Source: an uncultured Gemmatimonadaceae bacterium (GTDB taxonomy: Bacteria; Gemmatimonadota; Gemmatimonadetes; Gemmatimonadales; Gemmatimonadaceae). From it: DNA of 33,789 nt. Position numbers and translations under genes: made by a program. The stretch is taken from NCBI GenBank assembly GCA_963822945.1, contig CAWGJO010000015.1:1-33789 (forward strand), in the 5' to 3' direction. Below the pieces are notes generated by a model. That model saw only the letters and a list, made by a program, of their open reading frames with translations. It was not told the origin of the DNA and did not search any database. This document shows, piece after piece, positions 5,624 to 33,789 of this stretch (positions are counted from its first letter, which is position 1; each line of letters opens with the position of its first letter).

Positions 5624-6900
5624 TCGCGCTCGTCCTGCTCGTCGGGTGCGCCTCCATGGCCCCGATTCCGGGCGGGCCCGAAGACCACACGCCGCCCAGG
5701 ATCGTCCGCGTCACGCCCGACACCAACGCCGTGAACTTTCACGGCGACGCGGTCGACTTCCGCTTCGACGGCGTGGTGAGCGACCGATCGGGGCCCACGC
5801 AGGATCTCAACGGATTGTTCATCATCTCGCCGCGCGACGGTGCGCCGCGCATCAGCTGGCACCGCGACCACATCGACGTCCGCCCGCAACGACGGCTGGC
5901 GCCCCAACACCGCATATCGCGTGACGATGCTGCCCGGCCTCGCCGATCTCAGCAGCAACGTCACGAAGTACACGTACTCCTTCGTCTTCAGCACCGGGCC
6001 GACGATCCCGCCGTTCGGCATCCTGGGGCGCGTGTTCGACTGGAGCGCGCAGCGAATCGCGCCCGGCGCCGTGGTCGAGGCCACGCGCCACATCGACAGC
6101 ACGGCCACGCAGCGCGCCGACAGCCTGGTCTACTTCGACATCGCCGACTCCACCGGGCAGTTCCAACTCGGGCCGCTCGACAGCGGCACGTACGCGGTCG
6201 TGGCCTACATCGATCCCAACCGCAACGGCAAACGCGATGTCGGCGAGTTGTGGGACAGCACGCTGGTCCACGTCACCACCACGCAGCCGTATCTCGAGAT
6301 GCTCGCCGCCCGCCGCGACACCGTCGGTCCGAGCATCGCGTCGGCAGACGAGATGGACAGCGTCAGCATCCGGCTCACCTTCGACAAACCGCTGAGTCCC
6401 GCCGGGCCGTTCGACCCGTCGCACTTCCGCGCGGTGCGGGGCGACTCCGTGCCGCTCACGATCGTCGCGGTGCGCACCCTCGCCGACTACCAGGCGGCCG
6501 TGGAAAAGGCCCGAGCGGACTCCGTGGCCCGTGCCGACTCGCTGGCGGCCCTGCGCGACACGACGAAGCGCCGCCGGCCCCCGACGCCGCCGGCCCCCGT
6601 GCGCCCGGCGCCCTCGGATACGTCGGCGTCGGCGCTCAAGCCCTCGAAGCCGGCGCCGCCCACCGACCTGGTCCTCCAGCTCGCGCCCCAATCCAGCCTG
6701 CCGCCGCTCACGCAGATTCGCGTCACGGCCACCGACATCCTGAACCTGCTCGGCTACAAGGGCACGTCGACGCGCGTATTCGCCACGCCCAAACCAGCGC
6801 CACCGCCCGACAGCACGAAGGCCGACACCAATCGGGTCCGCGTGCCGCCCGACACCTCCGGCGCCCGACCGCCGCTGACGAAGGCCGGAGGCGGACGGCC

Positions 6901-6904
<4 letters not shown>
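5611..6904 (+). CDS. Exported lipoprotein with Ig-like (Big_5-type) domains and a Pro-rich tail (one frameshift at ~5881-5888)
   Basis: GTG start overlapping the end of valS. Signal peptide and lipobox RRLIALVLLVG|C, then CA..PIPGGPEDHTPP as in FCB-group Ig-like lipoproteins. It continues after a +1 shift as NDGWRPNTAYRVT in the 5840..6904 frame and has a DxNxNG loop (DPNRNGKRD). The stop overlaps the selA start (GTGA). Confidence 0.8.
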
Positions 6905-8252
<1,348 letters not shown>

Positions 8253-8256
<4 letters not shown>

Positions 8257-8804: not shown

Positions 8805-9487
8805 GAGCACGGCTGGCCGTGCTCGCGTCGGGCGGCGGATCCAATCTCCAGGCGATCCTCGACTACTTCGACGCGCTCGGCGAGCGGCGCGCCGGCGACG
8901 TGGTGCTCGTGGCCTCCGACCGGCCGGGGGCGCACGCCCTGGCGCGTGCGCGGGCGCGCGGCATTCCCGCCGCTCTCATCCGCACCAAGGCACACCCCGA
9001 GGGCGCACCGCTGCTGCAATTGCTGCGCGACGCCCGGGTGGACTACGTGGTGCTGGCCGGATACCTTCGCCTCGTGCCGGCGGAGGTGGTGCGGGCCTAC
9101 ACGGGACGCATCGTCAACGTGCACCCGGCGCTGCTGCCGGCGTTCGGGGGTCCGGGCATGTACGGGCACCACGTGCACGAGGCCGTGATCGCCGCCCACG
9201 CAAGGGAGAGCGGCCCCACGGTGCACTTCGTGGACGAAGTGTTCGATCACGGCGCCGTCATCGCGCAGTGGGCGGTGCCCGTGCTCCCCAACGACACACC
9301 GGATGCGCTCGCCGCCCGCGTGCTGCGCATGGAACACCTGCTCTACCCGCGCGCGGTGCAGGCGCTGGCTGCCGGACGGATCCACCCCGGACAGCCGGCG
9401 CGCACCGGGCGCGTCACGCACGACCTCACCGCCGAGACGGACGTTCGGCCAATCGCAAAGGAGCTCGAGGATGCGTTGGATCGGTAA
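8801..9487 (+). CDS. purN: Phosphoribosylglycinamide formyltransferase
   Basis: LAVLASGGGSNLQAI, VLAGYLRL, NVHPALLPAFGGPGMYG and SGPTVHFV..FDHG. GTGA overlap with the gmhB-like gene. Confidence 0.96.
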   Translation: MRARLAVLASGGGSNLQAILDYFDALGERRAGDVVLVASDRPGAHALARARARGIPAALIRTKAHPEGAPLLQLLRDARVDYVVLAGYLRLVPAEVVRAYTGRIVNVHPALLPAFGGPGMYGHHVHEAVIAAHARESGPTVHFVDEVFDHGAVIAQWAVPVLPNDTPDALAARVLRMEHLLYPRAVQALAAGRIHPGQPARTGRVTHDLTAETDVRPIAKELEDALDR

Positions 9488-11631
9488 ACTGGCTTTCGCC
9501 GCGTTGTTCACGGCCGCCCTGCCGGGCGCGCGCGCGTCGGCGCAGCAGTTGGTGGCGCACCGCTCGGTCGCCTTCGTCGAGCCGTCGTTCGTGGACGCCG
9601 TGCAGGCCTGGATCCGCCTCCCCGTGGCCCCCGGGCACGAGCGCTTCGCCACCGACCGCATCCAGGCCGCCGATCCGGGGTGGACGCGCGATGCCCTGGG
9701 CAATCTGGTGAAGAGCCGCGGACAGGGCGCACCGGTGCGTGTGATCGCCTGCGGCCTCGATGCGCCGGCGTACGTGGTGAGCGAGATCCGCGACGACGGC
9801 TACATCCGCGTGCAGATGGCCGGCAACGGCCCGCGCCAACCGTTGTGGGACCAGTTCAATGAAGGCCAGCGCGTGCTGATCATGACCGGCAACCGCGCCA
9901 CGCCGGGCAAGGTGCAGATGGTGCCCGGCGTGTTCGGTGTGAAGAGCGTGCACCTGCTGCGCGGAAGCCCGGTGCACGACGGACTCACCAACATCAGCGA
10001 TCTCTGGCTCGACGTCGGCGCCACGAGCGCCGCCGACGTGAAGCGGATGGGCATCCAGCTGCTCGATCCCGTGTTCCGCGATCTCGTGCCGTGGACGGTG
10101 GACGGCTACGTGACCGGGCCCAATGCCGGGTCGCGCGCCGGGTGTGCGATGGTTGCCGCGGCGTCGAACGCGACCCCCGCCTCGGGGACGAGCATATTCG
10201 TGATCTCCGCGCAGAGTGCGTTCAGCTACGCCGGACTGCTCGGCGTGCTTGCCCGCACGCCCAACGTCGATTCGGTGTTCGTCGTGGGCGCTCCGTCGGC
10301 CCCGGCGCCCGAGGCAGATGCCGTCGTCGCCACGACGCCGCTCCGGCTGCCCTTCCCCGCGGCCGTGCCCGCCGCACCGGTGACGGCGGTGACCGTGCGC
10401 CGCGCGGACCCCAACACGCTCATCGAACGCATCAGCGGCAGCGACCTGGCGGAGCTGATGCGCGCCGTGGCGGCGCACGCCGGCGTCGACGTGGAGCGCG
10501 CGAAGCTCGTGCGCCCCAACGATGTGCTGCCAACCGTCGCCGAGCAGCGCGATGACCTCTCGCCCTACGCCGACCTGCTGGCCCGCCTTACCGACCGGTA
10601 CGGGGTCTCGCGCCACGAGGGCGCCGTGCGCGGTCTGGTGCGCGCCAATCTCCCCGCATGGGCAAGGCCGCTCGCCAAGGAAGACACGGCGGGCAATCTG
10701 TACGTGGCCGCCGGTCCCGACCGCGACACGGTGGTGATCGTGGCGCACATGGACGAGGTGGGCTTCAACGTGACGGGCATCGAGCCCGACGGCGCGCGTG
10801 GCGCTGAGCAACGCGGGCGGCTTCATCCCGACGCTCTGGGAGGGTGAGCCGGCGCTGCTGCACCGCGACGGCGACGCGCAGGGCTCGACGCGCACGCGCG
10901 ACTGCATGGCGACCAGCGCCTCGTCCACGCGCGGGGTGTTCCTGGTGCCCGACGAGACGGCGGCGCCCGCCGCCCGCGGCCGCGGCGGTCGCCGCGCGCC
11001 GGTGGTGCACTATGCCTGGTTCGGTCCCGACCCGGCCAAACTCGGCATCAAGCCCGGCATGACCGTCACCGGCTTCAAGTGCGCCACGCGGTTGGGACGC
11101 TACCGGTTCACGGCGCGCTCGATCGACGACCGGGCCGGCGACACCTCGCTGTTGTTCGCCCTCCGCGCCATCAACCCGCGCGCGCTCACGCACAAGGTGA
11201 TCTTCGCCTTCTCGACGCGCGAGGAGATCGGGCTGGAGGGCGCCGCGGCGCTCGCCGCCGAGTTCGGCGTGTCGGTCCGGCGGGTGCTGGCCATCGATAC
11301 GTTCGTGTCGTCCGACACGCCCTTCGAACCGCACCGGTTCGCCGACACGCCCATCGGCATGGGTCCGGTGGCGCGCATGCTCGACAACTCCAGCGTCACG
11401 CCGCCCGAGGAGTTCGCGCGGCTCGTGCGCATTGCCGAGTCGAACCACATTCCGCTGCAGTGGGGCACCACCAACGGGGGCAACGACGGCTCGGAGTTCG
11501 TGCGCTTCGGCGTGCCCGACGTGCCCATCGGGTGGCCGCTGCGGTACAGTCATTCGCCCGCCGAGGTGATCGATCTGCGGGACATTCGCTCGCTGTCGCA
11601 GTTGGTGGCGGCGATAGCGGTTGCACGGTAG
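9471..11631 (+). CDS. Secreted tandem M42-family metallopeptidase: degenerate N-terminal copy plus catalytic C-terminal copy (one frameshift at ~10790-10798)
   Basis: ATG 9471 follows AAGGAG/GAGG. Signal peptide MRWIGKLAFAALFTAALPGARASA|Q. The C-terminal copy has GVSRHE, AHMDEVG, SIDDRAG, STREEIG, AIDT, GGNDG and RYSHS. ORFs 9303..10847 and 10798..11631 join at GIEPDG/VALSNAGG. Confidence 0.85.
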
Positions 11632-18259: not shown

Positions 18260-20676
18260 ATGTCCGTCATCCCGCAGACCCCCGACGCGCCGGGCGCCCC
18301 CGGCATCGGCCCCACCTGGACCAGCAGCGCCAAGGACATCGTGGGCTGCTCGCTCGGCCCGTCGCAACTGTGGTACACCATGGGCTTCGGGATCGTCAAC
18401 GAGGTCTACTATCCGCGCATCGACATCCCGCAGATCCGCGACCTCGGATTCATCGTCGCCGACGGCAAGGGGTTCTGGGTCGAGGTGAAGCGGCTGCAAC
18501 GCTACGAGTCTGCGACTCCCCGATGCCGGCATCCCGGTGGTCGACATCGTCCACCGCCACGACCGGTTCGAGTTGTCGCTGCGGGTGGTGGCCGATCCGA
18601 TGCGCGACGTGCTGCTGCTCTCGCTCCGCCTCACGGGAGACGAGACGCTGCGCCCGTACGTCCTGCTGGCGCCGCATCTCGGCGGCACCGGCCGCGGGAA
18701 CCTGGCGACCGCCGTCCGCGACCGGGGCGTCAATGCGCTGTGCGCCGAACAGGGACCGTTCGGCCTCGCACTCGTGGCCCGCGACGACGCCGGCGGTGAC
18801 GCCATGGGCCGTACGAGTGCCGGATACGTGGGCACGAGCGACGGGTGGCAGGACTTCGACCGCAACGGGGCGATGACCTGGACCCACGGGCACGCCGGCC
18901 CGGGCAACGTGGCGCTGATGGGGGAACTCGCCGCGCAGCGCCACGCTGGCGCTCGGGCTCAGTTCGAGCCCGCAGTCGGCGGCCACGCTCGCCGCCTCGG
19001 CCCTGCAGCAGGACTTCGACTCGGTGTGGAACGGAGAGGCCGACCGCTGGCGCGCGTGGCATGCGCGCACGAGCGCCGACGGCAGCGGCGGCGGCGACGG
19101 CAAATTCCGCCTGACCGATGACCGGCAGCGCGCGGCATTGCGCACGTCGGCCATGGTCTTGCACGTGCACCGCGACAAGACCTTTCGCGGCGCCATGGTG
19201 GCGAGCCTCAGCGTGCCGTGGGGCAGCAGCAAGGACGACCTGGGCGGCTACCACCTGGTGTGGCCGCGCGACCTCGTGGAGAGCGCGGGCGCGCTGCTGG
19301 CGCTCGGCGCCGATGGAGGAGGCGCGCGACGTGATGCGCTATCTCGTGGCCACGCAGAACGAGGACGGCCACTGGTTCCAGAACCAGTGGCTGGGCGGCA
19401 CGCCGTACTGGCACGGCGTCCAGCTCGACGAGGCCGCCTTTCCGTTGCTGCTCGCCGGCGCGTCGACGAGCGCGGTGCGCTGGACGGCATTCGGGTAGCG
19501 GGCATGGTGCGGCGCGCCGTGCGGCTTCATCGCGCTCAACGGCCCGTCGAGCGACCAGGACCGATGGGAAGAGGACAGCGGCGTGAACCCGTTCACGCTC
19601 GCCGTCGTGCATCGCCGCGCTGGTGTGCGGCGCCGCACTTTCTGGACGGCGCCGAGCGCGAGTTGGCACTGCGCCTGGCCGACTTCTGGAATGCGCGCGC
19701 CGAAGACTGGACGACGGTGCGCGGCACGGCGCTGGCGCAACGGCTCGGCGTGACGCGGTACTACGTGCGCGTGGCGCCCGCCCGGCGTGGTGTCGTCGGC
19801 ACGACGCGCTCGTACGAGGTGCTGGCGATCAAGAACCTGCGCGTACGACCCCGACCTGCCGGCCGACGACCAGGTGGGCACCGACTTTCTGCAGCTCGTG
19901 CGCTCGGGCTGCGCGGCGCCGACGATCCCGTGATCTGCGACAGCGTGAAGGTGGTCGACGCGCTGCTCAGGGTGGACACGCCCAACGGGCCCGCCTGGCA
20001 CCGCTACAACGGCGACGGATACGGCGAACACGATGACGGCTGCGCCCTTCGACGGCACGGGCGGCGGCCGCGGCGTGGCCGCTGCTCACCGGCGAGCGCG
20101 GCCACTACGCGCTGGCGGCGGGCGAGGATCCGCTGCCCTACCTGGACGCCATGGTGCAGATGACCGGCCCCGGCGGGCTGATGCCCGAGCAGGTGTGGGA
20201 CCGCGCGCCGATCCCCGGGCGCGGCCTCGTTCCCGGCAAGCCCACGCGGGTCGGCCATGCCGCTGGTGTGGGCGCACGCCGAGTACGTGAAACTCGCGGC
20301 CAGCATACAGCTCGGACATCCGTTCGATCGCGTGACCGCCGTGTGGGAACGCTACGCGGGCAAACGCCCGGACGCCGAGTGGTGGTGCTGGAGCCTGGCC
20401 GCCCCGATCGACGAGGTGGTTGCCGGCAAGGGCCTGCTGATCCATCTCCCCGGGGCGGCCGTCGTGCACTGGAGTGCGGACGGGTGGCAGTCGGTTCATG
20501 ACGACGCCACGCAACCCACCGGCCTCGGCGTGCACCAGTTCGCGATCGCGCCGGACGTCGTGGGCACGGCGCCGTCGCGAGCACTCGCCTTCACCTTCCG
20601 GTGGACGGCATCGGAGGCGTGGGCGGGACGCAACTTTCACGTACGGGTGGTGGACGCCGACGACGACGCGGCGTAG
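18260..20676 (+). CDS. Glucoamylase / glucan 1,4-alpha-glucosidase (GH15), interrupted by about a dozen frameshifts
   Basis: Colinear fragments in alternating frames: APGAPGIGPTWTSSAKD, GIVNEVYYP, SAGYVGTSDGWQD, ASLSVPWG, GGYHLVWPRD, QLDE, DRWEE (catalytic acid), FLQLVR.GLR, RYNGDGYGE, WPLLTGERGHY, LMPEQVWD (catalytic base) and SAMPLVWAHAEY. A true pseudogene cannot be excluded. Confidence 0.88.
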
Positions 20677-20726: not shown

Positions 20727-23594
20727 TCACTTCTCCGTGGGGTCCAGCCGCGCGCGCACGATGCGCGCGAGCCGGTCGGCGTCGAACGGCTTGTAGAGCA
20801 GATTGACGCCCTCCACCATGGATCCGCTCGGATCGGCGACTTCGGCGCTGTAGCCCGTCATGTACACCACCGGAAGATCCGGGCGGTCCTTGACGAGGAG
20901 GCGGGCCAGGTCCACGCCGCTCATCCCCCCTGGCATCACGAGGTCGGTGAGCACGAGACGGATGGCGTCGCGATGCTCGGCCCATGTCTGGAGGGCCGCG
21001 ACGCCGTCGGAGGACTCGATCACGTCGTAGCCCAGGTGGAGCAGCGTCGTCCGCGCGGCGGCGCGCACGGCGGCGTCGTCCTCCACCAGCAGCACCGTTT
21101 CGCCACCGCCCAGCGCGGCGGGCTCGTCCGGCGAGTCTCCAACCGACTGCGCCGACGCGAGGTGCCTGGGCAGGAGGATTCGGAAGGTGGTGCCGCGGCC
21201 GGGGTCGCTCGTCACGTCGATCGAGCCCTCGTGCTGCTGCACGATCCCGAACACGGTGGCCAGCCCCAGCCCGGTGCCCTGCCCCACGTCCTTGCGGGTG
21301 AAGAACGGTTCGAAGATGCGCGGCAGGTCCTCAGCGGAGATGCCGGCGCCGGTGTCGCTGACCCGCAGGCAGGCGAACGTTCCGGTCCGCCCATCGGCCG
21401 CCCGCATGGCTCCCGCCCCATCCACGTCCACGAGCGACGTCTCGATGACCAGCGTACCGCCGTGGGGCATGGCATCGCGCGAATTCACCGCCAGGTTCAG
21501 CAACACCTGGTCGATCATCCCGGCATCGGCATGGACATACAGCGGGTGCGGCGCGAGCGCGAGCTGCATCCGGATGTCTTCACCCAGCACGCGCTGCAGC
21601 ATCTTGGAAATGCGCGTGACGACGTCGTTGAGATCGAGCGCGCGCGGCTGCATGGCCTGCTGGCGGCTGAACAGCAGCAACTGCCGGGTGAGGTTGGACG
21701 CGCGCTCGGCGGCCAGCTCGATCTCGTGCGCGTAGTCCGCGGTGGCCGATGCCGGATCCATCTGGCCGGCCAGCATTCCCGCCTGGAGCTGAATGACCGC
21801 CAGGATGTTGTTGAAGTCGTGGGCCACACCGCTCGCCAGGCGTCCCACCGCCTCCATCTTCTGGGCGTGGCGGAACTGTTCCTCGAGCTGCCGCCGTTCC
21901 GTGACGTCCCGCGCCACGCCGACGATGCGCTCCACCCGCCCGGCACGATCGTGCACGGGGAAGGCGCGGTCGCGGATCCAGCGGATGCTCCCGTCGGGAC
22001 GCACGATGCGATACGCCTCGTCGTACTCGCCGGTGACCTGCTTCGTGGTCGCCGCCACCCGGATGCGCTCGCGGTCGTCGGGATGGATGGTGTCCAGCCA
22101 GCTCCCCGAAGACGCATACAGTTCGCTGCACGGGCGCCCCCAGATCTGCTCATACGCCGGGCTGACGTACACGGCGCGTGTCTTGGCGACGTCGGCGATC
22201 CAGAACACCTCGTTGATGTTCGATGCCAACTCCTGGAACCGGCGCTCGCTCTCCCGGAGCGCCTCCTCCACCTCCCGCCGCCGTGAGATGTCGATGCCGA
22301 CGCCCACCAGGCAGGCCTCGCCGTTGAACATCACTCGGCGGCCGGTGAGAAAGTACGGGACGACGTTGCCGTCCTTGCGGAGCACGTTCGCCTCCACCGA
22401 CGCCTGGCCCTTCGTGAAGACTTCGGCAATACGGGCCTCGGCCAACGGGCGGTCGGCGAGCGCGAGCAGATCCAACGGCCGCATGCCCGCGATCTCGTCG
22501 TGCGAGTAACCGGTGGCGGCTTCCAGTTCGTGGTTCCAGCGGAGGAATCGTCCGGTCGAGTCATAGAAGTACATCGCCCCCGGCATGCTCTCGATCATCA
22601 TCTCCGAGAAGGCCCGCTCGCTGAGCGCCGCCGCCTCCACCGCCAGCCGGTGCTCCTCGCGCGCGATGTTGTCGAGCGCGAACGAAAGGTCGGTGGCCGC
22701 TTCGGTGAGCAGGGCGACCTCGCGCTCCGCGAAGAAGTCGCGTTCGTCGGAATACACGTTCAGCACCGCACACACGGCGCCCTGCATGTGGACGGGGAAG
22801 GCGGCGGACGACCGGAAACCGCGCTTCGCCACCTCCTCGCGCCAGGGCAGTGTGGATGGATCGTTGAGGGAGTCGTGGATGATCACCGGCCGGTCCTCGC
22901 GGAACGCCGTGCCCGACGGCCCCCGCCCCTCCGGACGATCGTCCGCGAAAACCTGGATGCGCGACACGTACCCGCCCTCGTCGCCCCAGATCGCCACCGG
23001 CCGCAACTGCCGGGTCTCGGGGTCGTGCCAGCCCACCCAGATCATCTTGAAGCCGCCGTGCTCGCCGAGCACCCGGCAGATCTTCTGCAACAGTTCGTCG
23101 CGTCCGTGCGTCCAGACGATGGCCTGATTCACCTGGCTCAACGCCGCGTACAACCGCGTGAGCCGTTCCAGGGCGTGTGCCTGCGAGATCTGCGTCGTGA
23201 TGTCGCGGATCACCTTCGCCGCGCCGATCACCGTGCCGTCGGGCGCGCGAATGGGCGACACCGTGATCGAGGTATCGATGAGCCGGCCGTCGCGAGTCTG
23301 CCGCACGGTTTCGAACGGCTCCACCGGCTCGCCCCTGGCAATGCGGTCGAGAATCCGCCCGCCCTCGTCACGCCGGTCGGGCGGAATGATGGTCTCGAGC
23401 GATTGCCCGACCATCTCGGCGGCCGGATATCCGAACATGCGCGCCGCGCCGCTGTTCCAAAATGTGATCACGCCCTGGAGGTCGTGGCCGATGATCGCGT
23501 CCACCGATGCCTCGACGATGGCGTTCACATCGAGCGCGCCGTCCGCGTGCCCGGACTTGCCCTTTCGCGATCCGCCCTTGCGGACACCGCCCAT
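20727..23594 (-). CDS. Cytoplasmic PAS-GAF-PAS-PAS hybrid histidine kinase/response regulator
   Basis: PAS (DAIIG..WNSGAARMFGY), GAF (GRGPSGTA..RSSAAFP) and two more PAS domains. H-box [39 protein letters not shown] and a receiver (LVEDD..LTDLVMP..LYKPF). No TM helix. Confidence 0.95.
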   Translation of the reverse strand: MGGVRKGGSRKGKSGHADGALDVNAIVEASVDAIIGHDLQGVITFWNSGAARMFGYPAAEMVGQSLETIIPPDRRDEGGRILDRIARGEPVEPFETVRQTRDGRLIDTSITVSPIRAPDGTVIGAAKVIRDITTQISQAHALERLTRLYAALSQVNQAIVWTHGRDELLQKICRVLGEHGGFKMIWVGWHDPETRQLRPVAIWGDEGGYVSRIQVFADDRPEGRGPSGTAFREDRPVIIHDSLNDPSTLPWREEVAKRGFRSSAAFPVHMQGAVCAVLNVYSDERDFFAEREVALLTEAATDLSFALDNIAREEHRLAVEAAALSERAFSEMMIESMPGAMYFYDSTGRFLRWNHELEAATGYSHDEIAGMRPLDLLALADRPLAEARIAEVFTKGQASVEANVLRKDGNVVPYFLTGRRVMFNGEACLVGVGIDISRRREVEEALRESERRFQELASNINEVFWIADVAKTRAVYVSPAYEQIWGRPCSELYASSGSWLDTIHPDDRERIRVAATTKQVTGEYDEAYRIVRPDGSIRWIRDRAFPVHDRAGRVERIVGVARDVTERRQLEEQFRHAQKMEAVGRLASGVAHDFNNILAVIQLQAGMLAGQMDPASATADYAHEIELAAERASNLTRQLLLFSRQQAMQPRALDLNDVVTRISKMLQRVLGEDIRMQLALAPHPLYVHADAGMIDQVLLNLAVNSRDAMPHGGTLVIETSLVDVDGAGAMRAADGRTGTFACLRVSDTGAGISAEDLPRIFEPFFTRKDVGQGTGLGLATVFGIVQQHEGSIDVTSDPGRGTTFRILLPRHLASAQSVGDSPDEPAALGGGETVLLVEDDAAVRAAARTTLLHLGYDVIESSDGVAALQTWAEHRDAIRLVLTDLVMPGGMSGVDLARLLVKDRPDLPVVYMTGYSAEVADPSGSMVEGVNLLYKPFDADRLARIVRARLDPTEK

Positions 23595-26419: not shown

Positions 26420-27331
26420 TCACCCTTTGTGTAATTCTTGCGGCGGTCGTGGCGAGGCCCCGAGGGGCGACCGCGGTGGCGGCCCGTTCGCGCGGCGACC
26501 GGCTCGTTCCGCGGCGTCCGACAGCCACTGCACGAACAGCACTCCCGCTGCGGCCAGATACACGAAGCCGGCGGGAATCCACATCAGCAGGCCGGCGAGT
26601 TGCTGATCCTGCAGCGGGGTGATTCCCCACGGAGCGGTGGTGTGCAGGTGCACCACGTACCACGGCCGCCGCGCGAGGGCGATGAGCGCACCGAGAGTGG
26701 CGCACTGCAGGCCGGCGGTGAACACGTAGACCACTCCGGCCCCGCGATCCATCCGGCGCCGACGGCCCGTATAGCGGAAGAGCAGCCACCAGAAGGCGAA
26801 CCCCGCCGCGACGAACGACCCGTGCTCCAACGCATGCACCGCGTCGTTGCGCACCGCGAGATCGTACGCGGCGGGGAGATGCCAGAACCAGAGGATGACC
26901 ACGTTCGCGATCCACACCGGGACCGGCTGCATCACGCGCCCCGCAATGGCGCGCAGCGGCGCGTGACGCCACCAGCGCACGAGACGATGCCTCGACCCGG
27001 GTGGCAGCCCCCACAGTCCCACGTACACCGGCGCCGACGCAACGAGCAGCGGCGCCACCACGAGCAGGAGCACGAGATGCTGTACCATGTGAAGGGAGAA
27101 CAGCGCGTCGGCCGCGGCGTCGAGCGGCGAGAGCAACGCAAACACGACCGCCCCCCCTGCGGCGAGCGCGACCCAGGGGCGCCACCATTCGAGCCCGTGC
27201 CCGGGACGCCCGCGGCGGCGCAGCCGGCGCAGCCCCGCCAGATACCACACCGCACCGACCGCCAGCGGCACCACCACCCCCGGCTCCGCGTTCCAGCGCT
27301 GCCACCAACCCGGCGGCGGCGTCAGTAGCAC
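26420..27331 (-). CDS. ctaG: Cytochrome c oxidase assembly factor (Caa3_CtaG family)
   Basis: ALLSPLD, LFSLHMVQHL, WFWHLPAAYD, HALEH, FWW and DQQLAGLLMW. GTG start overlaps the upstream ORF stop. Confidence 0.9.
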   Translation of the reverse strand: MLLTPPPGWWQRWNAEPGVVVPLAVGAVWYLAGLRRLRRRGRPGHGLEWWRPWVALAAGGAVVFALLSPLDAAADALFSLHMVQHLVLLLVVAPLLVASAPVYVGLWGLPPGSRHRLVRWWRHAPLRAIAGRVMQPVPVWIANVVILWFWHLPAAYDLAVRNDAVHALEHGSFVAAGFAFWWLLFRYTGRRRRMDRGAGVVYVFTAGLQCATLGALIALARRPWYVVHLHTTAPWGITPLQDQQLAGLLMWIPAGFVYLAAAGVLFVQWLSDAAERAGRRANGPPPRSPLGASPRPPQELHKG

Positions 27332-27675
27332 AACGGTGCCAGGAAGAGCGCCACGGTGCTGAAGAGCAGCCCGACGACGAACATCACGTTCAGCAGGGTA
27401 CCGCCGAACGCCATGAACCGCGCGCGCCGCGACGGCGTGTCGTGCGCGGGGGCGCGCCCGGCCCGTACGGTGGAAACGAGCGCGACTCCGGCGCCCAACC
27501 AGGCCACGCCCGTGATCGCCACCAGCAACACCCACGCCGGGCCGTAGGGGCGCAGCCGTGCCGCCGGCGCCAGACAGTACGCCGAGCCCGCCGACACCAC
27601 CGCCAGCAGATCGAAGCTCCACGCCGCCGCCGCGCCGAAGGCGGAGAACCAGAGGCGCTTCGCGGAGGCGGTCAC
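27322..27675 (-). CDS. Small hydrophobic hypothetical protein in the cox operon
   Basis: 117 aa with about three hydrophobic segments. GTGA overlap with the CoxI+III stop and an overlap with the ctaG start. Confidence 0.7.
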   Translation of the reverse strand: MTASAKRLWFSAFGAAAAWSFDLLAVVSAGSAYCLAPAARLRPYGPAWVLLVAITGVAWLGAGVALVSTVRAGRAPAHDTPSRRARFMAFGGTLLNVMFVVGLLFSTVALFLAPLCY

Positions 27676-30200
27676 AGGCCCAACCTCGGCGCCACGTACA
27701 GCGAGGTGAACACGGCGATCCACACAGCGTCGACGAAGTGCCAGTACATCGCCGCGTTCGAGAGATAGTGGCGGCGCGCGTCGGACAGCTTGCCCTTCAA
27801 TAGCATCACGAGTACGAGACTGAGCATCATCAGGCCCACGAACACGTGTGCCCCATGCAGTCCGGTGATCGTGAAGAACGCCGATCCGTAGGCGCTCGAG
27901 GCCGGCGTCATCGGCTGGCGGCTGTACTCGACGCCCTGCAGCACGAGGAAGACGGCGCCCAGGAGAATCGTCGCACCCAGCGCCCACTGCGTTCGCGTCT
28001 GCTGGCCGTTCCGCATCGCGCGCTCCGCCCACCAGAGCACCGCGCTGCTCGACAGCAGGATGGCCGTGTTCGGCAGCGCGACCCGCAACGCCGGAGGACC
28101 GACCGGCGGCCACGCGCCGCCGGATCGCGCTGCCAGGTAGAAGTAGCTGAACAGCAGATAGGCGAAGAGCGACGCTTCGGTCGCGATCAGCAGCGCCATT
28201 GCCCACTGTCCCGGCGGGTGCCGCTCGACCGCGTTCCCGGTGGGCAGGGCGCGCAGGTCGTAGCCGCCGCCGGCCGGTGTCGACCCCTCACGCGGTTCCG
28301 CGGGCTCCGGAAGCCGCGCGATGGATGCCCCCGGCCAGAGCCACCCACGAGACACGCGACCGTGGCGACGGCGGCCAGGACCGCAACGATCCAGCGGTCG
28401 AACAGGAGCGCGTAGAACAGAAAGAGCGTGGCCACGGACAGATAGAACGGCCACAGACTGTCGCCTGGCATCGGCAGGATCGCCGCCGGTTCCGCGTCCA
28501 GCGCCGTCGTGCTCACCGCCTGGTGTCCGTCGTCCAGCGGCGGGCCCTCCTCCAGCCGCGTGGCACGCTCGCCGATTCGGCCTTCCCACAGCGGATGGCG
28601 GCTGCCCACGCGCGGGATGCACGGAAGTTGTACGGTGGGGGCGGCGACGACGTGGCCCATTCCAGCGTTCCGGCGCCCCATGGATTCTCCGGCGCCTCCG
28701 CGCCGTGCCGCAGACTGCGCCAGACGTTGATGAGGAACAGCAGGAAGCCGAACGCGAACACGAACGACGCCGATCGTGACGATCAGGTTCCAGAGCTCCA
28801 TCCCTGTCCCGGCGCGTAGGTATAGATGCGGCGCGGCATCCCCAGCAGCCCGAGAATGTGCATCGGAAAGAAGCCACGTTGAACCCCAGGAACATCAGCC
28901 AGAAGTTCCAGCGTCCCAACCGCTCCCACATGAACCGGCCCGTCATCTTCGGGAACCAGTAGTACACGCCCGCCACGACCGGGAAGAGATTGATGCCCAC
29001 CAGCACGTAGTGCAGATGCGCGACCACGAAGTAGGAGTCGGTGGCCTGCCAATCGAACGGCACCGAGCCGGTAACCACCCCGCTCACCCCGCCGATGACG
29101 AACAGGATGATGAAGCCGACGAGGAACAGGAACGGCGTGCTGAAGACGGGGCCGGCCCTGCCAGATGGTGGCGATCCACGCGAACACCGACACGGCGCTG
29201 GGAATCGCGATCACCATGCTCGCGCCGCTGAAGAAGGAGAGCGCGACCGGCGACAGCCCGGTGGCGAACATGTGGTGCACCCACACGCCGAACCCGAGAA
29301 TCCCCACGCCCACCGTGGCCAACGCGACCATACTGTAGCCCACCAGCGGACGGCGGCAGAAGGTGGGGATCATGTCCGACGCCAGGCTCATGGCCGGCAG
29401 CACGATGATGTAGACCCACGGGTGACCGAAGATCCAGAACAGGTGCTGCCAGAGCAGCGGCTGTCCGCCGTGCGCGTGGTCGAAGAAGTGCATCCCGAAA
29501 TGGCGGTCGAGATACAGGAACAGGCAGGCGGCGGTGAGTGACGGGCAGCGCGAACAGGATGGACACCGACGCGGTGGCCGTACCCCAGAGCAGAATCGGC
29601 ATCCGGTCGAGCGACATTCCGGGCGCGCGCATCTTGAAGAACGTGACCACGAAGTTGATCGCACCGGCCGTGGTCGAGATGCCCAGGAACAGCATCCCCA
29701 GCGCGAAGAAGTCGATGTTGGGACCGGTCAGATACCGGCTCGACGCGAGCGGCACATAGTTGAACCAGCCGGCGTTGGGCATCGATCCCAGCGGGAAACT
29801 CGTGTAGAGAAAGATTCCCGCCGCGAGAAAGAGCCAGTAGCCGACCGCGTTGACGCGCGGGAACGCCATGTCGCGCGCGCCGATCATCAGGGGCCACAGG
29901 TAATTGCTGAAGCCCGACAGCATGGGCAGCGCGAACAGGAACAGCATCGTCACGCCGTGCATCGTGAAGAGCTGATTGTACAGCTGCGGCGAGAGCACGT
30001 CGGCGTGCGCATGTGTGAGTTGGAGGCGCATGGCGAGCGCCTCGAGGCCGCCGATGACGAGGAAGACGAAGGCCGTCACCAGATAGCGGATGCCGATCGT
30101 CTTGTGATCGACGGTCGCCAGCCGGCCGAGCACGCCGGCCGGCGTCTCCCAGATCGCCTGCAATCGCTTGACCCGAACGGGCGGACACGGTCGTCGTCAT
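27672..30200 (-). CDS. ctaD: Heme-copper oxidase subunit I+III fusion (A-family-like), interrupted by about 8 frameshifts
   Basis: ATG 30200 (ATGA overlap with coxII). Colinear motifs across frames: TVDHKTIG, YNQLFTMHG, GARDMAFPRVN, HLFWIFGHPWVY, VWVHHMF, DSYFVVAHLHY, GMPRRIY and NPWGAGTLEW. Subunit III motifs follow: LIATE, FFTITGLHGAHV and YWHFVDAVW. Shifts near 30172, 29543, 29150, 28870, 28800, 28768, 28620 and 28348. Confidence 0.9.
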
Positions 30201-31129
30201 CGCAGCTCCCTCAGGTAGTGGACCAGGGCCGTCAGGTCCGCGTGATCGAGTCCGGTGACCGGCATCAACGATCCCGGCTTCACCGAATCGGGGTGGGCCA
30301 GCCACCGGCTGAGCCCGGCCTCGGTGTTCGGCAGCACGCCGGCGGCCAGCGTCTCGCGACCGCCGACGTGCGTGAGATCCGGGCCGGCCTGCCCGTCGGC
30401 CGTGGTGCCCATGAGGCGATGGCACCCCGCGCACCCGTGCGCGCGGAGCAGCGCCATCGCGGTCGCCGAGGTATCGACCACGGGCAGCCGTTCGTGCGCC
30501 TCCCACGCCCGGAATGCAGCCGGCCGCTGCGCCACGACGAGGATCTTCATGTTCGCGTGCTCCGTCCCGCAGAACTCGGCGCACTGCCCGTGATACTCGC
30601 CCGTCGAGTCGGCCTCCAGCCACATCTCGTTGGTCTGGCCGGGAATCATGTCGGTCTTGCCGCCGAGCGCCGGCACCCAGAAGCTGTGGATCACGTCGCC
30701 CGCCTTCAGCAGGAAGTGCACCGGCGTCCCCACCGGGATATGGATTTCGTTGGCGGTCACGAAGTCCACGCGGTGGTCGGGATCCAGGTACGCCACCTTC
30801 CACCAGTAGCGGTATCCGGTCACGCGGATCGTCATGCCCGGCTCGCGCAGCACCCGGGCGTAGCCGTCGAGCACGCGGAGGGTGTACAGGAAGCTGACGA
30901 AGAGAATGCCGGTGGTGATCAGCGCGCCGATCGCGATCCACCGGCGCGCCGGCGCTTCGCCCGCTTCGGTCAGCTCGTCGCCTGCCTCGCGACGGTGAAA
31001 GAGCGCGTACACGATGAGCCCGGTGACCACGATCGCCACGGCGAGCGCCGTGAGATTCAGCATCCACCCGAGGCGCGCCAGCGGGCGGCCGGCGCTCCCC
31101 ATGGCACGCAGGACGTCGGTGCCGTTCAC
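30197..31129 (-). CDS. ctaC: Cytochrome c oxidase subunit II with a fused C-terminal cytochrome c (caa3-type)
   Basis: Two TM helices, VTGYRYWWKVAY, CuA ligands DVIHSFW and CAEFCGTEHANM, heme motif CAGCH and distal KPGSLMP. Confidence 0.95.
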   Translation of the reverse strand: MNGTDVLRAMGSAGRPLARLGWMLNLTALAVAIVVTGLIVYALFHRREAGDELTEAGEAPARRWIAIGALITTGILFVSFLYTLRVLDGYARVLREPGMTIRVTGYRYWWKVAYLDPDHRVDFVTANEIHIPVGTPVHFLLKAGDVIHSFWVPALGGKTDMIPGQTNEMWLEADSTGEYHGQCAEFCGTEHANMKILVVAQRPAAFRAWEAHERLPVVDTSATAMALLRAHGCAGCHRLMGTTADGQAGPDLTHVGGRETLAAGVLPNTEAGLSRWLAHPDSVKPGSLMPVTGLDHADLTALVHYLRELR

Positions 31130-32568
31130 TGTCCCGCCCCCGTCGCGGTTCCGCGGTCCCGGCCTGCATCCCCGCCGTGCCGCGACGTCAGGAATGCGGC
31201 CAGCGCATCGAGTTGATCGCTCGGCAGCACCTTACTGAACGCCGGCATGTTGTAACCGCCGTTCTCGATCCACTGCTTGATCTCGTTTTCGGACATGCGA
31301 TCCCCGACGTTTGTCAGATCGGGTCCGCGCAGCCCGCCGAACCCGTGCACGCGGTGGCAGTCCTCGCACCCGCGCTGGTGAAAGAGCACGGCGCCGCGCT
31401 GCACGGACGAATCGGACGACGCCACCACCGAGTCGGGCAGCGCCTGGGCCGAGAAGTGCGGCGACCACGGGGCCACGACGCCCAGCCGCCAGAGCACGCC
31501 CACCCCAACGACGATGGCGGCCACGACCGGCAGCGCCCAGGGACGCCGCCGCACGTGCCGTTCGCCGCGGCCGAAGACCACCGGCAACAGAAGGAGTACC
31601 GTTGCCGCGGAGAGCGGCAGCAGCCACATCAACACCGACTCCGTGCCGTGCGGCAGCTCGGCGAGCAGCGCGAAGTACCAGAGCAGATACCAGTCCGGAC
31701 GTGGGCGCGCGCGGATGAGCGCGGGATTGGGCGGCCGGCCCAGCGGCTCTGGCCCCACGAACACCGCCAGGCCCAGCACGAACAGCAGCACCGCGCAGGC
31801 GAAGACGACGTCGCGCCAGGCCGCGTCGGGCCAGAAGGGCACGCCGCGCTTCTCGAGCAGCGTCGCGTAGCGCGCGCGTTCGGTGCCGGGGTCCACCGGT
31901 TGCCCCGGCTTGGGCGGGTCGGAGATCCCGTGGTGCAGCACCAGATACAGGTGCAGGGCGATCACGCCGCCGATGAGCAGCGGAATCACGAAGACGTGGT
32001 AGGCGAACAGATGGCTGAGTGTCGCCGTGCCGATGTGGCCGCCGGCGAGAATGAGGTTGGCCAGCAGGTGCCCGACCACGGGCACGCGGCCGGCCTGCTC
32101 CGCCGCCACGACCGCCGACCAGACCCCGTTCTGATCCCAGCGCAGCACCTGCCCGGTAAAGCCCATCGTCACGGTGAGCCCCAGCAGCAGCACCCCCGAG
32201 ATCCAGTTGACCTCGCGCGGGAACTTGTACGACCCGGTGATGAACACCCGGATGGCGTGCAGCCCGATGAGCACGATCATCGCGGAGGCGCCGAAGTAGT
32301 GCAGGCCGCGGAGAATGCTCCCCCACAGGGCGCGGTGCGAGATGTACTGCAGGCTCTGATATGCGCTGCCGGCCGAGGGCACGTACATCGTGGCGAGCGC
32401 GACCCCGGTGACCACCTGAAGGAGGAACGCGGCCAGCGTCGCGCTGCCGAACACGTAGCCCCATCCCGTGTCGGGAGGCACCTTGTGCTTGATCAATGGG
32501 CGCAGCTTGGCGGACAACCCCAGCCGGTCGTCCAGCCAGTGCGCCACCCGTCGCCAGAGTCGCGTCAT
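31126..32568 (-). CDS. qcrB: Cytochrome b (b6+subunit IV-like) with a fused C-terminal monoheme cytochrome c
   Basis: Heme b His pairs LRGLHYFGAS..GLHAIR and YHVF..ALHL, PREVNWISG, Qo motif RPDWY and C-terminal CEDCH...NMP. GGAGG RBS before ATG 32568. Confidence 0.93.
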   Translation of the reverse strand: MTRLWRRVAHWLDDRLGLSAKLRPLIKHKVPPDTGWGYVFGSATLAAFLLQVVTGVALATMYVPSAGSAYQSLQYISHRALWGSILRGLHYFGASAMIVLIGLHAIRVFITGSYKFPREVNWISGVLLLGLTVTMGFTGQVLRWDQNGVWSAVVAAEQAGRVPVVGHLLANLILAGGHIGTATLSHLFAYHVFVIPLLIGGVIALHLYLVLHHGISDPPKPGQPVDPGTERARYATLLEKRGVPFWPDAAWRDVVFACAVLLFVLGLAVFVGPEPLGRPPNPALIRARPRPDWYLLWYFALLAELPHGTESVLMWLLPLSAATVLLLLPVVFGRGERHVRRRPWALPVVAAIVVGVGVLWRLGVVAPWSPHFSAQALPDSVVASSDSSVQRGAVLFHQRGCEDCHRVHGFGGLRGPDLTNVGDRMSENEIKQWIENGGYNMPAFSKVLPSDQLDALAAFLTSRHGGDAGRDRGTATGAGQ

Positions 32569-32605
32569 ACGCCGCGCCTCCGGGCGATCCCGCGCCGTCC
32601 CGCCC

Positions 32606-33109
32606 TCACCCGACAATGGGAATGGGACGGGTGGACACTTCGACGCGTCCGTGGCGGACGCGTACCGGATGATGCTTCAGCGGCTCGGCGGGCGGCCCCG
32701 CGGCCACCTGCCCGTCGGCGTAGAACACCCCGCCGTGACAGGGACACATGAACAGATCGGCGTCGGCCAACCAGCGCACGGGACAGCCCAGGTGCGTACA
32801 GTCGATGGCGAACGCCGTGAACTCGGCGTCGCCGGTGCGGCGCAGCCAGGCGCCCATCCGTTCCGAAACGCCGGCCCAGCGTTCGGCGCCCGGCGAATCG
32901 AAGATGACTTCGTGCGTCGTGCCGACCGGGTACTTCGAGACGGGCCCCACATCCCGCCACACCTCCGTCTCGCGGCGGATCACCGGCCCGAACACGAACG
33001 TCAGCGGCGGCACCGCCGCCACCGCCGCCGCCAGCGCCCCCAGCGCCATCGAGACGCGCGAGAGAAAGGTGCGCCGCTTCATGGCGGCCGAATCATCCGG
33101 TGGGTTCAT
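32606..33109 (-). CDS. qcrA: Rieske [2Fe-2S] subunit of a quinol:cytochrome c reductase
   Basis: Tat motif KRRTFL plus a TM helix, box 1 CTHLGC, box 2 CPCHGGVF and GPP..PL. ATG 33109 with GGAGG and an ATGA overlap. Confidence 0.95.
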   Translation of the reverse strand: MNPPDDSAAMKRRTFLSRVSMALGALAAAVAAVPPLTFVFGPVIRRETEVWRDVGPVSKYPVGTTHEVIFDSPGAERWAGVSERMGAWLRRTGDAEFTAFAIDCTHLGCPVRWLADADLFMCPCHGGVFYADGQVAAGPPAEPLKHHPVRVRHGRVEVSTRPIPIVG

Positions 33110-33789
33110 GCGTCCTCCCGCGCGTCGGCTTCGTGCAGGGCCATCCGCAGCACTTCGGCCAGGTGCATCGGCTGCCGCCCGGTGCCGTGCTCGGTCTGCT
33201 CCCGGCACGAGAAGCCGTTCATCACGATCAAGGTGTCGTCGGCGGCCTCGCGAACCTTTGGGAGCAGCACCCGTTCGCCGGCGCGCATCGAGATGTCGTA
33301 CTTGTCCTTCGAGAATCCGTAGGAGCCGGCGAGCCCGCAGCACCCCGCGTCGAGCACGTCGAGGTCGAGCCCCATCGCTTTGAGCACGGCCAACTCGGCG
33401 TCCATGTGCATCACCGCCTTGTGCTGGCAGTGGCCATGCACCACGGCGCGGCGATGGAGCGGGGGCGGCACATAGCGCTGGCGCACCAGATACTCGCTGA
33501 GCAGGAAGGTGCTGTGCGCCAGCCGCCGGGCATCCTCGTCGTTGGGAAAGAGGTTCACCAGTTCGTCGCGGAAGGCCGCCACGCAGCTTGGCTCGAGCCC
33601 GACGATGGGCACGCCGTCGCGCAGATAGGGGCGCAGCACGCGCAGCGTCTGCTCCCAGAGCGCCTCGGCGCGGTCGAGCATCCCGAAGTCGTAGAGCGGA
33701 CGCCCGCAACAGAGCGGGCGCGGGGGAATCTCCACCCGGCAGCCCGCCCGCTCCAGCACCTCGACGGCGGCCTGCCCCACGTCCGAGCG
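33106..33789 (-). CDS. C-terminal CCG-domain part of an Fe-S oxidoreductase, probably the FAD-linked GlcD/GlpC-type fusion family (5'-truncated by the window edge)
   Basis: LCCGRPLYDFG, GLEPSC, HGHCQHK, GCCGLAGSYG and NGFSCREQ. The frame is open to the window end. Confidence 0.85.
   Translation of the reverse strand, partial: RSDVGQAAVEVLERAGCRVEIPPRPLCCGRPLYDFGMLDRAEALWEQTLRVLRPYLRDGVPIVGLEPSCVAAFRDELVNLFPNDEDARRLAHSTFLLSEYLVRQRYVPPPLHRRAVVHGHCQHKAVMHMDAELAVLKAMGLDLDVLDAGCCGLAGSYGFSKDKYDISMRAGERVLLPKVREAADDTLIVMNGFSCREQTEHGTGRQPMHLAEVLRMALHEADAREDA

Follow-up and report, generated by a model that had tools for sequence, protein, structure and literature searches.

The window analysed here, a 33,789-nucleotide stretch that is the whole of contig CAWGJO010000015.1 (C15 in our numbering) of an 88%-complete genome from an uncultured Gemmatimonadaceae bacterium, carries on its minus strand a coxI-coxIII fusion gene for a heme-copper oxidase in which the D-channel Glu is replaced by Trp and the K-channel Lys by Ser. 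The same Trp, accompanied by a small residue or Gln at the Lys site, defines a group of homologues (the Trp clade, encoded at W-type loci) that is real, conserved and mechanistically unexplained, and whose members are most likely low-yield O2 reductases. Judged by the channel residues that define those types, the enzyme is an A-family oxidase outside both A1 and A2. The features on which this description rests are as follows.

27672..30200, minus strand: coxI-coxIII, Trp-clade heme-copper oxidase subunit I fused via a two-helix linker to a subunit III domain; ten single-base insertions or deletions (indels) break the window copy.
29654..30085, minus strand: D-channel residues Y39, N99, D110, N117, S175, T176 and N182, all kept (equivalent to Y33, N121, D132, N139, presumably S200 and S201, and N207).
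29410..29424, minus strand: CuB ligand His259 and cross-link Tyr263 (HPWVY).
29416..29418, minus strand: codon for Trp (W261 in the intact copy) at the site of the D-channel Glu, which is E242 in the bovine and E286 in the R. sphaeroides enzyme; placed by alignment and the numbering table of PMC12901375.
29188..29190, minus strand: codon for Ser (S337) in place of the K-channel Lys (K319/K362); placed by alignment.
30197..31129, minus strand: coxII of the caa3 type, encoding the CuA ligands and, C-terminally, a cytochrome c; codon 30935-30937, at the site of the K-entry Glu, specifies Ile.

All positional arguments concerning the channels rest on alignment rather than on coordinates. The numbers S200/S201 for S175/T176, along with the equivalences to S299, D407, H411 and R481/R482, are ones that we take to apply; those to Y33, N121, D132, N139, N207, G283, E286, T359 and K362 were drawn from Table 2 of PMC12901375.

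In an HMMER alignment to mycobacterial CtaD, the W of HLFWIFGHPWVY (TGG, 29416-29418) falls on the E of GHPEVY, and the S of MVIAIPSAVSVFAW (TCG, 29188-29190) falls on the K of PTGIKF, with both stretches lying in a single frame on the minus strand of the window. These substitutions had been reported in a sequence-only reading of the same DNA, and that reading was also right that the six metal-ligand His (29957, 29422, 29275, 29272, 29016 and 29010), the cross-linked Tyr (29410), the Asp and Asn of GARDMAFPRVN (29870 and 29849) and the RR pair (28831 and 28828) are all present. Neither substitute codon is one base away from a canonical one (TGG differs from GAG and GAA by two and three bases, and TCG from AAG and AAA by the same numbers), and the judgement that base-calling error was unlikely holds: a copy of the operon in a second genome of the same genus (G012), in which the fusion is intact and 842 amino acids long, has the same two residues, and Trp is found in 120 of the 120 best homologues, which rules out sequencing error at the two codons. 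The suspected absence of the K-channel entry Glu from CoxII proved equally well founded, the residue aligned with the E of LEILW in this genome's A1 CoxII being Ile. That Glu is missing from 34 of 34 aligned CoxII rows (33 W-type loci), a set from which rows failing the anchor motif, mostly from Burkholderiales, were left out; 76 of 80 loci had a CoxII-like match.

The product retains the features of a heme-copper O2 reductase, namely the six His and a helix VI Tyr (Y263) for which the covalent link itself is predicted. In P. denitrificans (Pd) numbering, the A1 D-channel set given in the accessible part of PMC3084760 (Asp124, Asn199, Asn113, Asn131 and Tyr35) is kept, and the position of Ser134 is occupied by Gly in the window copy and by Ser in 115 of the 120 homologues. 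The helix VI Glu278 that marks A1 enzymes is Trp; of the A1 K-channel, Lys354 is replaced by Ser, the subunit II Glu78 is missing, the Thr351 position carries Ser, and Ser291 and Tyr280 are retained. A quinol oxidase is ruled out by the CuA ligands in CoxII. Loss of the Mg-site His (T386) was considered as a hallmark of the clade and discarded as non-specific, mycobacterial CtaD also having Thr there.

The distribution of the Trp form was established with a DNA pattern for WxF[GA]HPWVY, which matched at least 120 loci; those listed comprise Pseudomonadota (90), Acidobacteriota (14), Gemmatimonadota (11), Actinomycetota (2), Myxococcota (2) and Binatota (1), and cultured carriers that are not pathogens include Paraburkholderia phytofirmans, Nitrosospira multiformis, Methylocystis and Methylobacter. 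The pattern occurs in 22 of 401 sampled genomes of the window's phylum, and this operon in 2 of 17 genomes of its genus. No conclusion depends on the unpublished genomes G084 (source of the W-type locus L074) and G022 (source of the canonical row L012), or on G545, which is among the 22 phylum matches. Across the 80 loci with flanks, together with the reference, the Lys site holds Ala (50), Gln (14), Ser (7), Gly (3), Thr (3) or a gap (4) and never Lys, the position of D110 holds Asp in 77 (with one Glu and three gaps), and N117 is present in 78 (with three gaps).

As a control for ascertainment by the Trp pattern, the best 120 homologues were ranked by similarity (from 8000 scored candidates sharing most words); these form a close subclade of 67-85% identity. 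Trp is present in all 120, and the Lys site is Ala in 73, Ser in 28, Gly in 17, Thr in 2 and Lys in none. Y39, N99, D110, N117, N182, the six His, Y263, R456, R457 and D382 are each found in 120 of 120; hydroxyl residues on the D-channel helices are nearly as constant (S95 in 119, S98 in 117, T176 in 115 and T177 in 117), as are residues on the K side (S274 and T295 in 120, S334 and S327 in 119, D275 in 116 and T298 in 114). The proposal that this is a divergent subfamily is thus upheld by a conserved clade that spans six phyla under purifying selection, in which no close homologue has E or K and which was not found to fall within any characterised clade. The combination of Trp and small residue is not special to the source genome, and databases hold many copies. 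At 29 of the 80 W-type loci the Gly before the CuB His (position 258), two residues from the Trp, is Ala; we take this position to be that of G283, at the constriction of the O2 channel.

The comparison with G012, in which the operon is found at approximately 94% DNA identity and the CoxI-III protein is 98% identical, also speaks to the integrity of the window copy. Between the two coxI-III genes there are 62 synonymous and 22 non-synonymous codon differences and ten single-base indels, and the window copy has no stop codon in frame; the ratio of non-synonymous to synonymous substitution rates (dN/dS) stands at 0.12 over the whole fusion and at 0.10 over its core, with values of 0.06-0.20 for three neighbours. 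Relaxed selection on this copy, which the earlier reading had named as a possible undoing of its claim, is ruled out by these values. Seven of the ten indels are absent from near-identical contigs (depth 2-4) that come from four of six listed runs, all of them samples other than the source, and the other three are unbridged; no difference is listed at the TGG or TCG codon in the rows of that comparison that are shown, nine others not being shown. Split genes are found elsewhere in the assembly, including an M42 peptidase and a glucodextranase/GH15 gene (window 9303-11631 and 18489-20673) and a second cytochrome b (contig C22, ~84700-85730), pointing to patchy indel errors. The start of the Rieske gene in G012 (L151:9260-9305) appears to be frameshifted by one extra base and is open in the window, so that G012 would carry indel errors as well. 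The ten indels are therefore probably assembly errors rather than signs of decay. That the window copy (as distinct from the clade) is a real pseudogene in this strain is rather unlikely, given the lack of an in-frame stop, a dN/dS within the range of the neighbours, the contigs of other samples and the other split genes; some weight is left for a real lesion because the confinement of all ten indels to coxI-III, with none in coxII, orfX, ctaG or the body of cytochrome b, is unexplained.

In a FastTree phylogeny of 154 of 205 rows (those covering at least 430 of 494 columns, with W-type and near-identical canonical rows subsampled), all 41 Trp rows form one clade (support 1.0), whose sister is a clade mostly with Glu or Asp at the helix VI site and Gln in place of Lys (joint support 1.0). 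An IQ-TREE analysis of 46 rows, run with a shortened search, gives support of 100 to the joint Lys-less clade and also to the Trp clade when the sequence L088 is left out; with L088 included, support for the Trp clade is only 59. In this tree the pair comes out beside the Gemmatimonadota-type A1 group. The Trp clade therefore nests within A1-like oxidases in these trees of A sequences, whose root is assumed (no B or C outgroup being included). Gln-bearing Trp sequences branch first within the clade and, because the clade is sister to one in which Lys has become Gln, Lys was probably lost first, the simplest order being Lys to Gln, then Glu to Trp, and then Gln to a small residue.

The sister clade, which is large (L003, L004, L005, L073:2-1813 and many of the distant representatives), keeps the helix VI Glu and has a rebuilt D-channel, with new Glu at 95, 173 and 182 in place of Gly and Asn lining; N99 is replaced in 4 of 25 ungapped rows and Glu stands at 182 in 21 of 27. 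The extra hydroxyls of the Trp clade (S95, S98, T176 and T177) lie at or beside the positions of these buried Glu. The 150 distant representatives include further lineages without the Lys, one of them a separate lineage with Glu kept and Ile, Leu or Met at the Lys site (P0091, P0104, P0122 and others). Replacements of the helix VI Glu in the form of HPDVY, FGHPAVY and FGHPLVY are also seen in that set (P0011, P0012, P0046, P0061, P0092, P0037 and P0041).

An AlphaFold model of the protein (predicted local distance difference test score 88.8; predicted template-modelling (TM) score 0.91) matches A1 enzymes of the aa3/caa3 type (mycobacterial CtaD, 6ADQ/9WCX; C. glutamicum, 7Q21; R. sphaeroides, 1M56; P. 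denitrificans, 1AR1) with a TM score of ~0.9 and 39-47% identity, and shares with them the six His, the cross-link Tyr, the D-channel mouth, the Arg pair and a CuA-bearing subunit II. The Trp clade differs from A1 in having Trp for E286 and Ala, Ser, Gly, Gln or Thr for K362, in lacking the subunit II entry Glu, and in the addition of S95, T177, T295, T376 and N403. The absence of Glu at its site, the CoxI-III fusion and the cytochrome c on subunit II recall the caa3 enzyme of T. thermophilus (2YEV) and other A2 oxidases; however, A2 enzymes have Tyr-Ser before the His (YSHPxVY) and, in 15 of 17 A2-type rows, Lys, whereas the Trp clade has FGHPWVY or FAHPWVY (that is, F257 and G or A258) and no Lys.

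By descent (A-type fold, placement among A sequences, CuA subunit II) the enzyme belongs to the A family, and the marks of the other families are absent. The B-family ba3 oxidase of T. thermophilus likewise has neither Glu nor Lys at the two sites (Ile and Thr, respectively, in Table 2 of PMC12901375), but it has lost the D-channel residues, it possesses Thr312, Tyr244, Tyr248 and Glu15 of subunit II, and its similarity is far lower (E ~1e-12 against 1e-152). The Trp-clade enzyme keeps the D-channel mouth and, by sequence offset, sets S337 (A in most members), S334, M270, S274 and no Glu against the B-family residues; the helix VII Tyr and KC-channel residues of C-family (cbb3) enzymes are missing, with Gly302 at the Tyr255 position by offset. 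Nitric oxide (NO) reductases lack the cross-link Tyr and have either the motif H-X-Arom-X-E or Gln, Asn or Glu at the site of the Tyr; the clade has HPWVY, with the Tyr present. A-family oxidases that lack Lys and keep the D-channel are already known from sequence (accessible parts of bioRxiv 2020.03.01.968255, section 7, and of the tables of PMC8239418). Those of acidophilic iron oxidisers and others, in what is accessible of Degli Esposti 2020/2021, have similarly lost the Lys and the subunit II Glu and kept the D-channel mouth, but they retain HPEVY, and their Lys site is mostly occupied by a large hydrophobic residue.

The nearest published description at the level of gene order concerns the COX operon type a-II (Degli Esposti 2014, PMC4013037) and the XoxF3-linked cox clusters (Voutsinos 2024, PMC10875860), which, in the accessible passages, share a COX1 with a COX4-like C-terminal extension, a pyrroloquinoline quinone (PQQ) dehydrogenase, a cytochrome c, CtaG and a small open reading frame (ORF) after coxIII. 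Many relatives fit such a fusion with a PQQ dehydrogenase beside it, and PF12270 was found on two homologues. This locus differs from a-II in having a Rieske/cytochrome b pair and no PQQ dehydrogenase. Type a-II may correspond to the Trp clade, going by the descriptions of the two, and the operon type itself appears to be published. The accessible text of a 2021 survey (PMC8239418) gives the K-channel of 'subtype a & a-II' as 'yes' and saw an unaltered D-channel among the proteins included in one tree; the accessible a-II and XoxF3 passages make no mention of channel residues, and the term 'channel' gives 0 matches in the accessible supplement of PMC4013037. The Trp form is unmentioned in the accessible parts of PMC3084760, PMC11214002, PMC6431628, PMC4013037, PMC10875860, PMC12901375, PMC5023235, PMC10766771, PMC8239418 and bioRxiv 2020.03.01.968255, which does not establish its absence from print, and a literature search for HPWVY returned 0 papers, with most subscription papers outside its coverage.

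The reading that we favour, tentatively and with a probability of roughly 0.45, is that of an accessory caa3-type, non-pumping O2 reductase fed by the D-channel. Residues, conservation, selection, fold, gene order and the presence of a canonical oxidase in the same genomes are observed; O2 turnover, proton route, lack of pumping and physiological role are inferred. The different proton routing or non-pumping O2 reduction put forward in the sequence-only reading is a reasonable hypothesis. Electrons would pass from a dedicated partner (here a quinol-oxidising pair of Rieske protein and cytochrome b-c; elsewhere the cytochromes of a PQQ dehydrogenase, or a triheme cytochrome c) to the cytochrome c of subunit II, and then via CuA and the low-spin heme to the heme-CuB-Tyr centre. 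With the K-channel apparently dismantled, lacking both its Lys and the subunit II Glu, the protons for water formation would enter from the cytoplasm at the retained D-channel mouth and move along a Ser/Thr-lined water chain past Trp261, with no titratable relay. Since no Glu gate would divide chemical from pumped protons, few or no protons would be pumped (A1 enzymes pump roughly one H+ for each electron) and about one charge, instead of two, would be moved per electron, so that O2 would still be reduced to water with less energy conserved. D-channel residues are not demanded by the fold, because the sister clade has replaced several of them within it; D-channel delivery without pumping is favoured because the mouth was kept though replaceable, the helices gained Ser and Thr, the K side was lost concertedly in subunits I and II, and the substitutes used by the B and C families are absent by offset. 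A low-yield enzyme would be affordable because the source genome also has A1 and bd oxidases (together with CtaA and a second cytochrome b), and the Trp-clade enzyme is usually an accessory or spare oxidase: 42 of 50 carrier genomes tested, of 80, also match the canonical Lys motif, one common to bo3 oxidases. A weak COX1-family match in the source genome (G000:C22:31021-31398; E 3e-8, over the first 140 profile positions) may be a fragment or an unrelated membrane protein.

Several points weigh against this proposal. According to the accessible text of PMC12901375, E242Q stops the cycle at Pr-to-F and F-to-O, and K319M prevents heme a3 from being reduced, from which the loss of both residues would predict a nearly dead enzyme. 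No conserved protonatable residue was found beside W261, the Tyr-Ser of A2 is absent, and the Trp might do no more than plug the D-channel. Invariant columns are frequent among the 120 homologues, which are a close set (123 of 494 columns); the Gln subclade keeps N99 in only about half of its sequences; the window copy lacks three of the clade hydroxyls (G120, F89 and V298); and 8 of the 50 carrier genomes lack the canonical motif, which may reflect incomplete genomes or motif variants.

If the Trp does shut the D-channel, protons might instead arrive by a rebuilt K-side route (Y263, S334, S274, D275, T295 and T298), leaving one channel as in the B and C families. While the conservation of S274, T295, S334, S327, D275 and T298 in 114-120 of the best 120 homologues would suit such a route, as would the replacement by T295 and T298 of what are mostly Met and Ile in canonical enzymes and the precedent of ba3, we consider it unlikely: 90 of the 120 have Ala or Gly at the Lys site, subunit II has no entry Glu, the window copy carries Val in place of T298, the Gln subclade mostly has Met instead of D275, and the positions of ba3 Tyr244/Tyr248 (Murali Dataset S1) and of C-family Ser244/His247/Tyr255 correspond by offset to Met/Ser and to Val, Ala/Ser and Gly. 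The retained D-channel mouth would, moreover, be left unexplained. A slow O2 scavenger or electron sink, supplied with protons from the periplasm and conserving no energy, would accord with the loss of both canonical relay residues, with an accessory role, with partners that are often periplasmic dehydrogenases, and with the position of the Burkholderia genes beside those for bd oxidase, GMC, TPP and GH15 proteins; this is the least probable alternative, as it again fails to account for the conserved cytoplasmic mouth and no periplasmic-side channel was identified.

A2 oxidases pump protons. That pumping persists here, by a water-only gate past Trp261 or by a route along the low-spin heme (of the H-pathway type), would be in keeping with the retention of the D-channel mouth, the Arg pair, W145/Y148 and D382, with a clade-specific Asn403 of helix X (120 of 120) that adjoins the bovine S382/V386 region, and with the accessible texts of PMC12901375, which argues that E242 does not carry pumped protons, and PMC3084760, which describes A2 enzymes without Glu. 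It is nevertheless doubtful, as the clade has no Tyr-Ser substitute, the S382 position is hydrophobic (I, V or L), E242Q removes both proton movements (PMC12901375, accessible text) and a bacterial H-pathway is disputed. The more specific proposition that O2 turnover at a normal rate is coupled to pumping without a Glu/Tyr gate or Lys channel, the invariant Trp serving as water gate or redox relay, strikes us as hardly more probable. The fixation of Trp in 120 of 120, rather than of any hydrophobic residue, could also signal changed chemistry: the enzyme might reduce NO or peroxide, or it might handle radicals, Trp261 then being a redox relay next to heme-CuB. A-family enzymes can reduce NO slowly, and Trp/Tyr hole-hopping chains are described for the family (accessible part of PMC11214002). 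This we regard as improbable, and the altered chemistry raised in the sequence-only reading is disfavoured: the cross-link Tyr, absent in NO reductases (PMC11214002, accessible part), is kept in 120 of 120; the motifs of those enzymes (H-X-Arom-X-E and HH...E; PMC3084760, accessible part) fail at the first, with its Glu missing from HPWVY; no denitrification genes turned up among those neighbour clusters that were identified; and peroxide turnover also needs steps blocked by E242Q.

Around the oxidase genes, the operon runs in the order FAD/Fe-S oxidoreductase, Rieske, cytochrome b-c, coxII-c, coxI-III, small ORF, ctaG, with the following members in addition to those given above.

33106..33789, minus strand: 3' end of a FAD/Fe-S/CCG oxidoreductase gene (GlpC/YdiJ-like), its stop codon overlaps the start of the Rieske gene; truncated where the contig ends, whole in G012.
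32606..33109, minus strand: Rieske iron-sulfur protein (CTHLGC and CPCHGG).
31126..32568, minus strand: cytochrome b with a fused C-terminal cytochrome c (PDWY as Qo motif, CxxCH at 31368).
27322..27675, minus strand: small membrane ORF after coxIII, without a Pfam match.
26420..27325, minus strand: caa3_CtaG copper-insertion factor (PF09678, E 1e-59).

The small ORF shows weak identity (31-37%) to the ORF found at the same place in other W-type operons. The donor varies among W-type loci and would enter at the level of cytochrome c, because the neighbouring genes differ. A PQQ dehydrogenase lies in the flank at 42 of 80 (within 6 kb), 15 of 20 and 11 of 12 W-type loci in three sets, and a triheme cytochrome c near 27 of 80; Rieske and cytochrome b genes are rare (1 and 3 of 80, the b at 28% identity; 0 of 20; 2 of 12). 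A motif resembling Rieske in L218 proved to be a chance match. Close orthologues of the window's pair occur in two other genomes of the family (L223:1708-3229 and L225:380-1894; b 57-59%, Rieske 51-52%), on the opposite strand and beyond PQQ genes. No PQQ dehydrogenase was found at this locus or in the 88%-complete genome, in which PF01011 gave one weak piece of 43 positions, and a general role as a methanol-linked oxidase was not adopted. The window's Rieske protein has CPCHGG without a Ser, and its cytochrome b has PDWY (31126-33789). We assume that a Ser in the Rieske protein marks high-potential forms; the two features together suggest menaquinol as substrate. In Burkholderiales (a B. multivorans plasmid, L178:1-15940, and L043, L050, L052 and L053) the last gene of the W-type operon encodes a triheme cytochrome c, and the operon sits among genes for GH15, TPP-enzyme, SDR, GMC and bd oxidase proteins, which together may be related to stress or stationary phase. 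In the window, too, a GH15 gene lies 6 kb downstream. Elsewhere in the window, at 5431-8256 and 20727-23594, are a SelA selenocysteine synthase and a multi-PAS/GAF hybrid histidine kinase.

E242 and K319 have been treated as indispensable, and single mutants stall the catalytic cycle; in a clade of six phyla under purifying selection both have been dropped, with the O2-reducing centre and the D-channel mouth kept. Whatever its activity, the clade bears on the routing of chemical as opposed to pumped protons, as well as on the energy yields assumed for soil bacteria with genes annotated simply as ctaD. It constitutes a natural test of proton handling by oxidases, which its cultured carriers make practical. 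Pumping without a Glu/Tyr gate or Lys channel, if true, would break the accepted model of a Glu-gated D-channel, and would make the dispute between D- and H-pathways testable in one natural bacterial enzyme.

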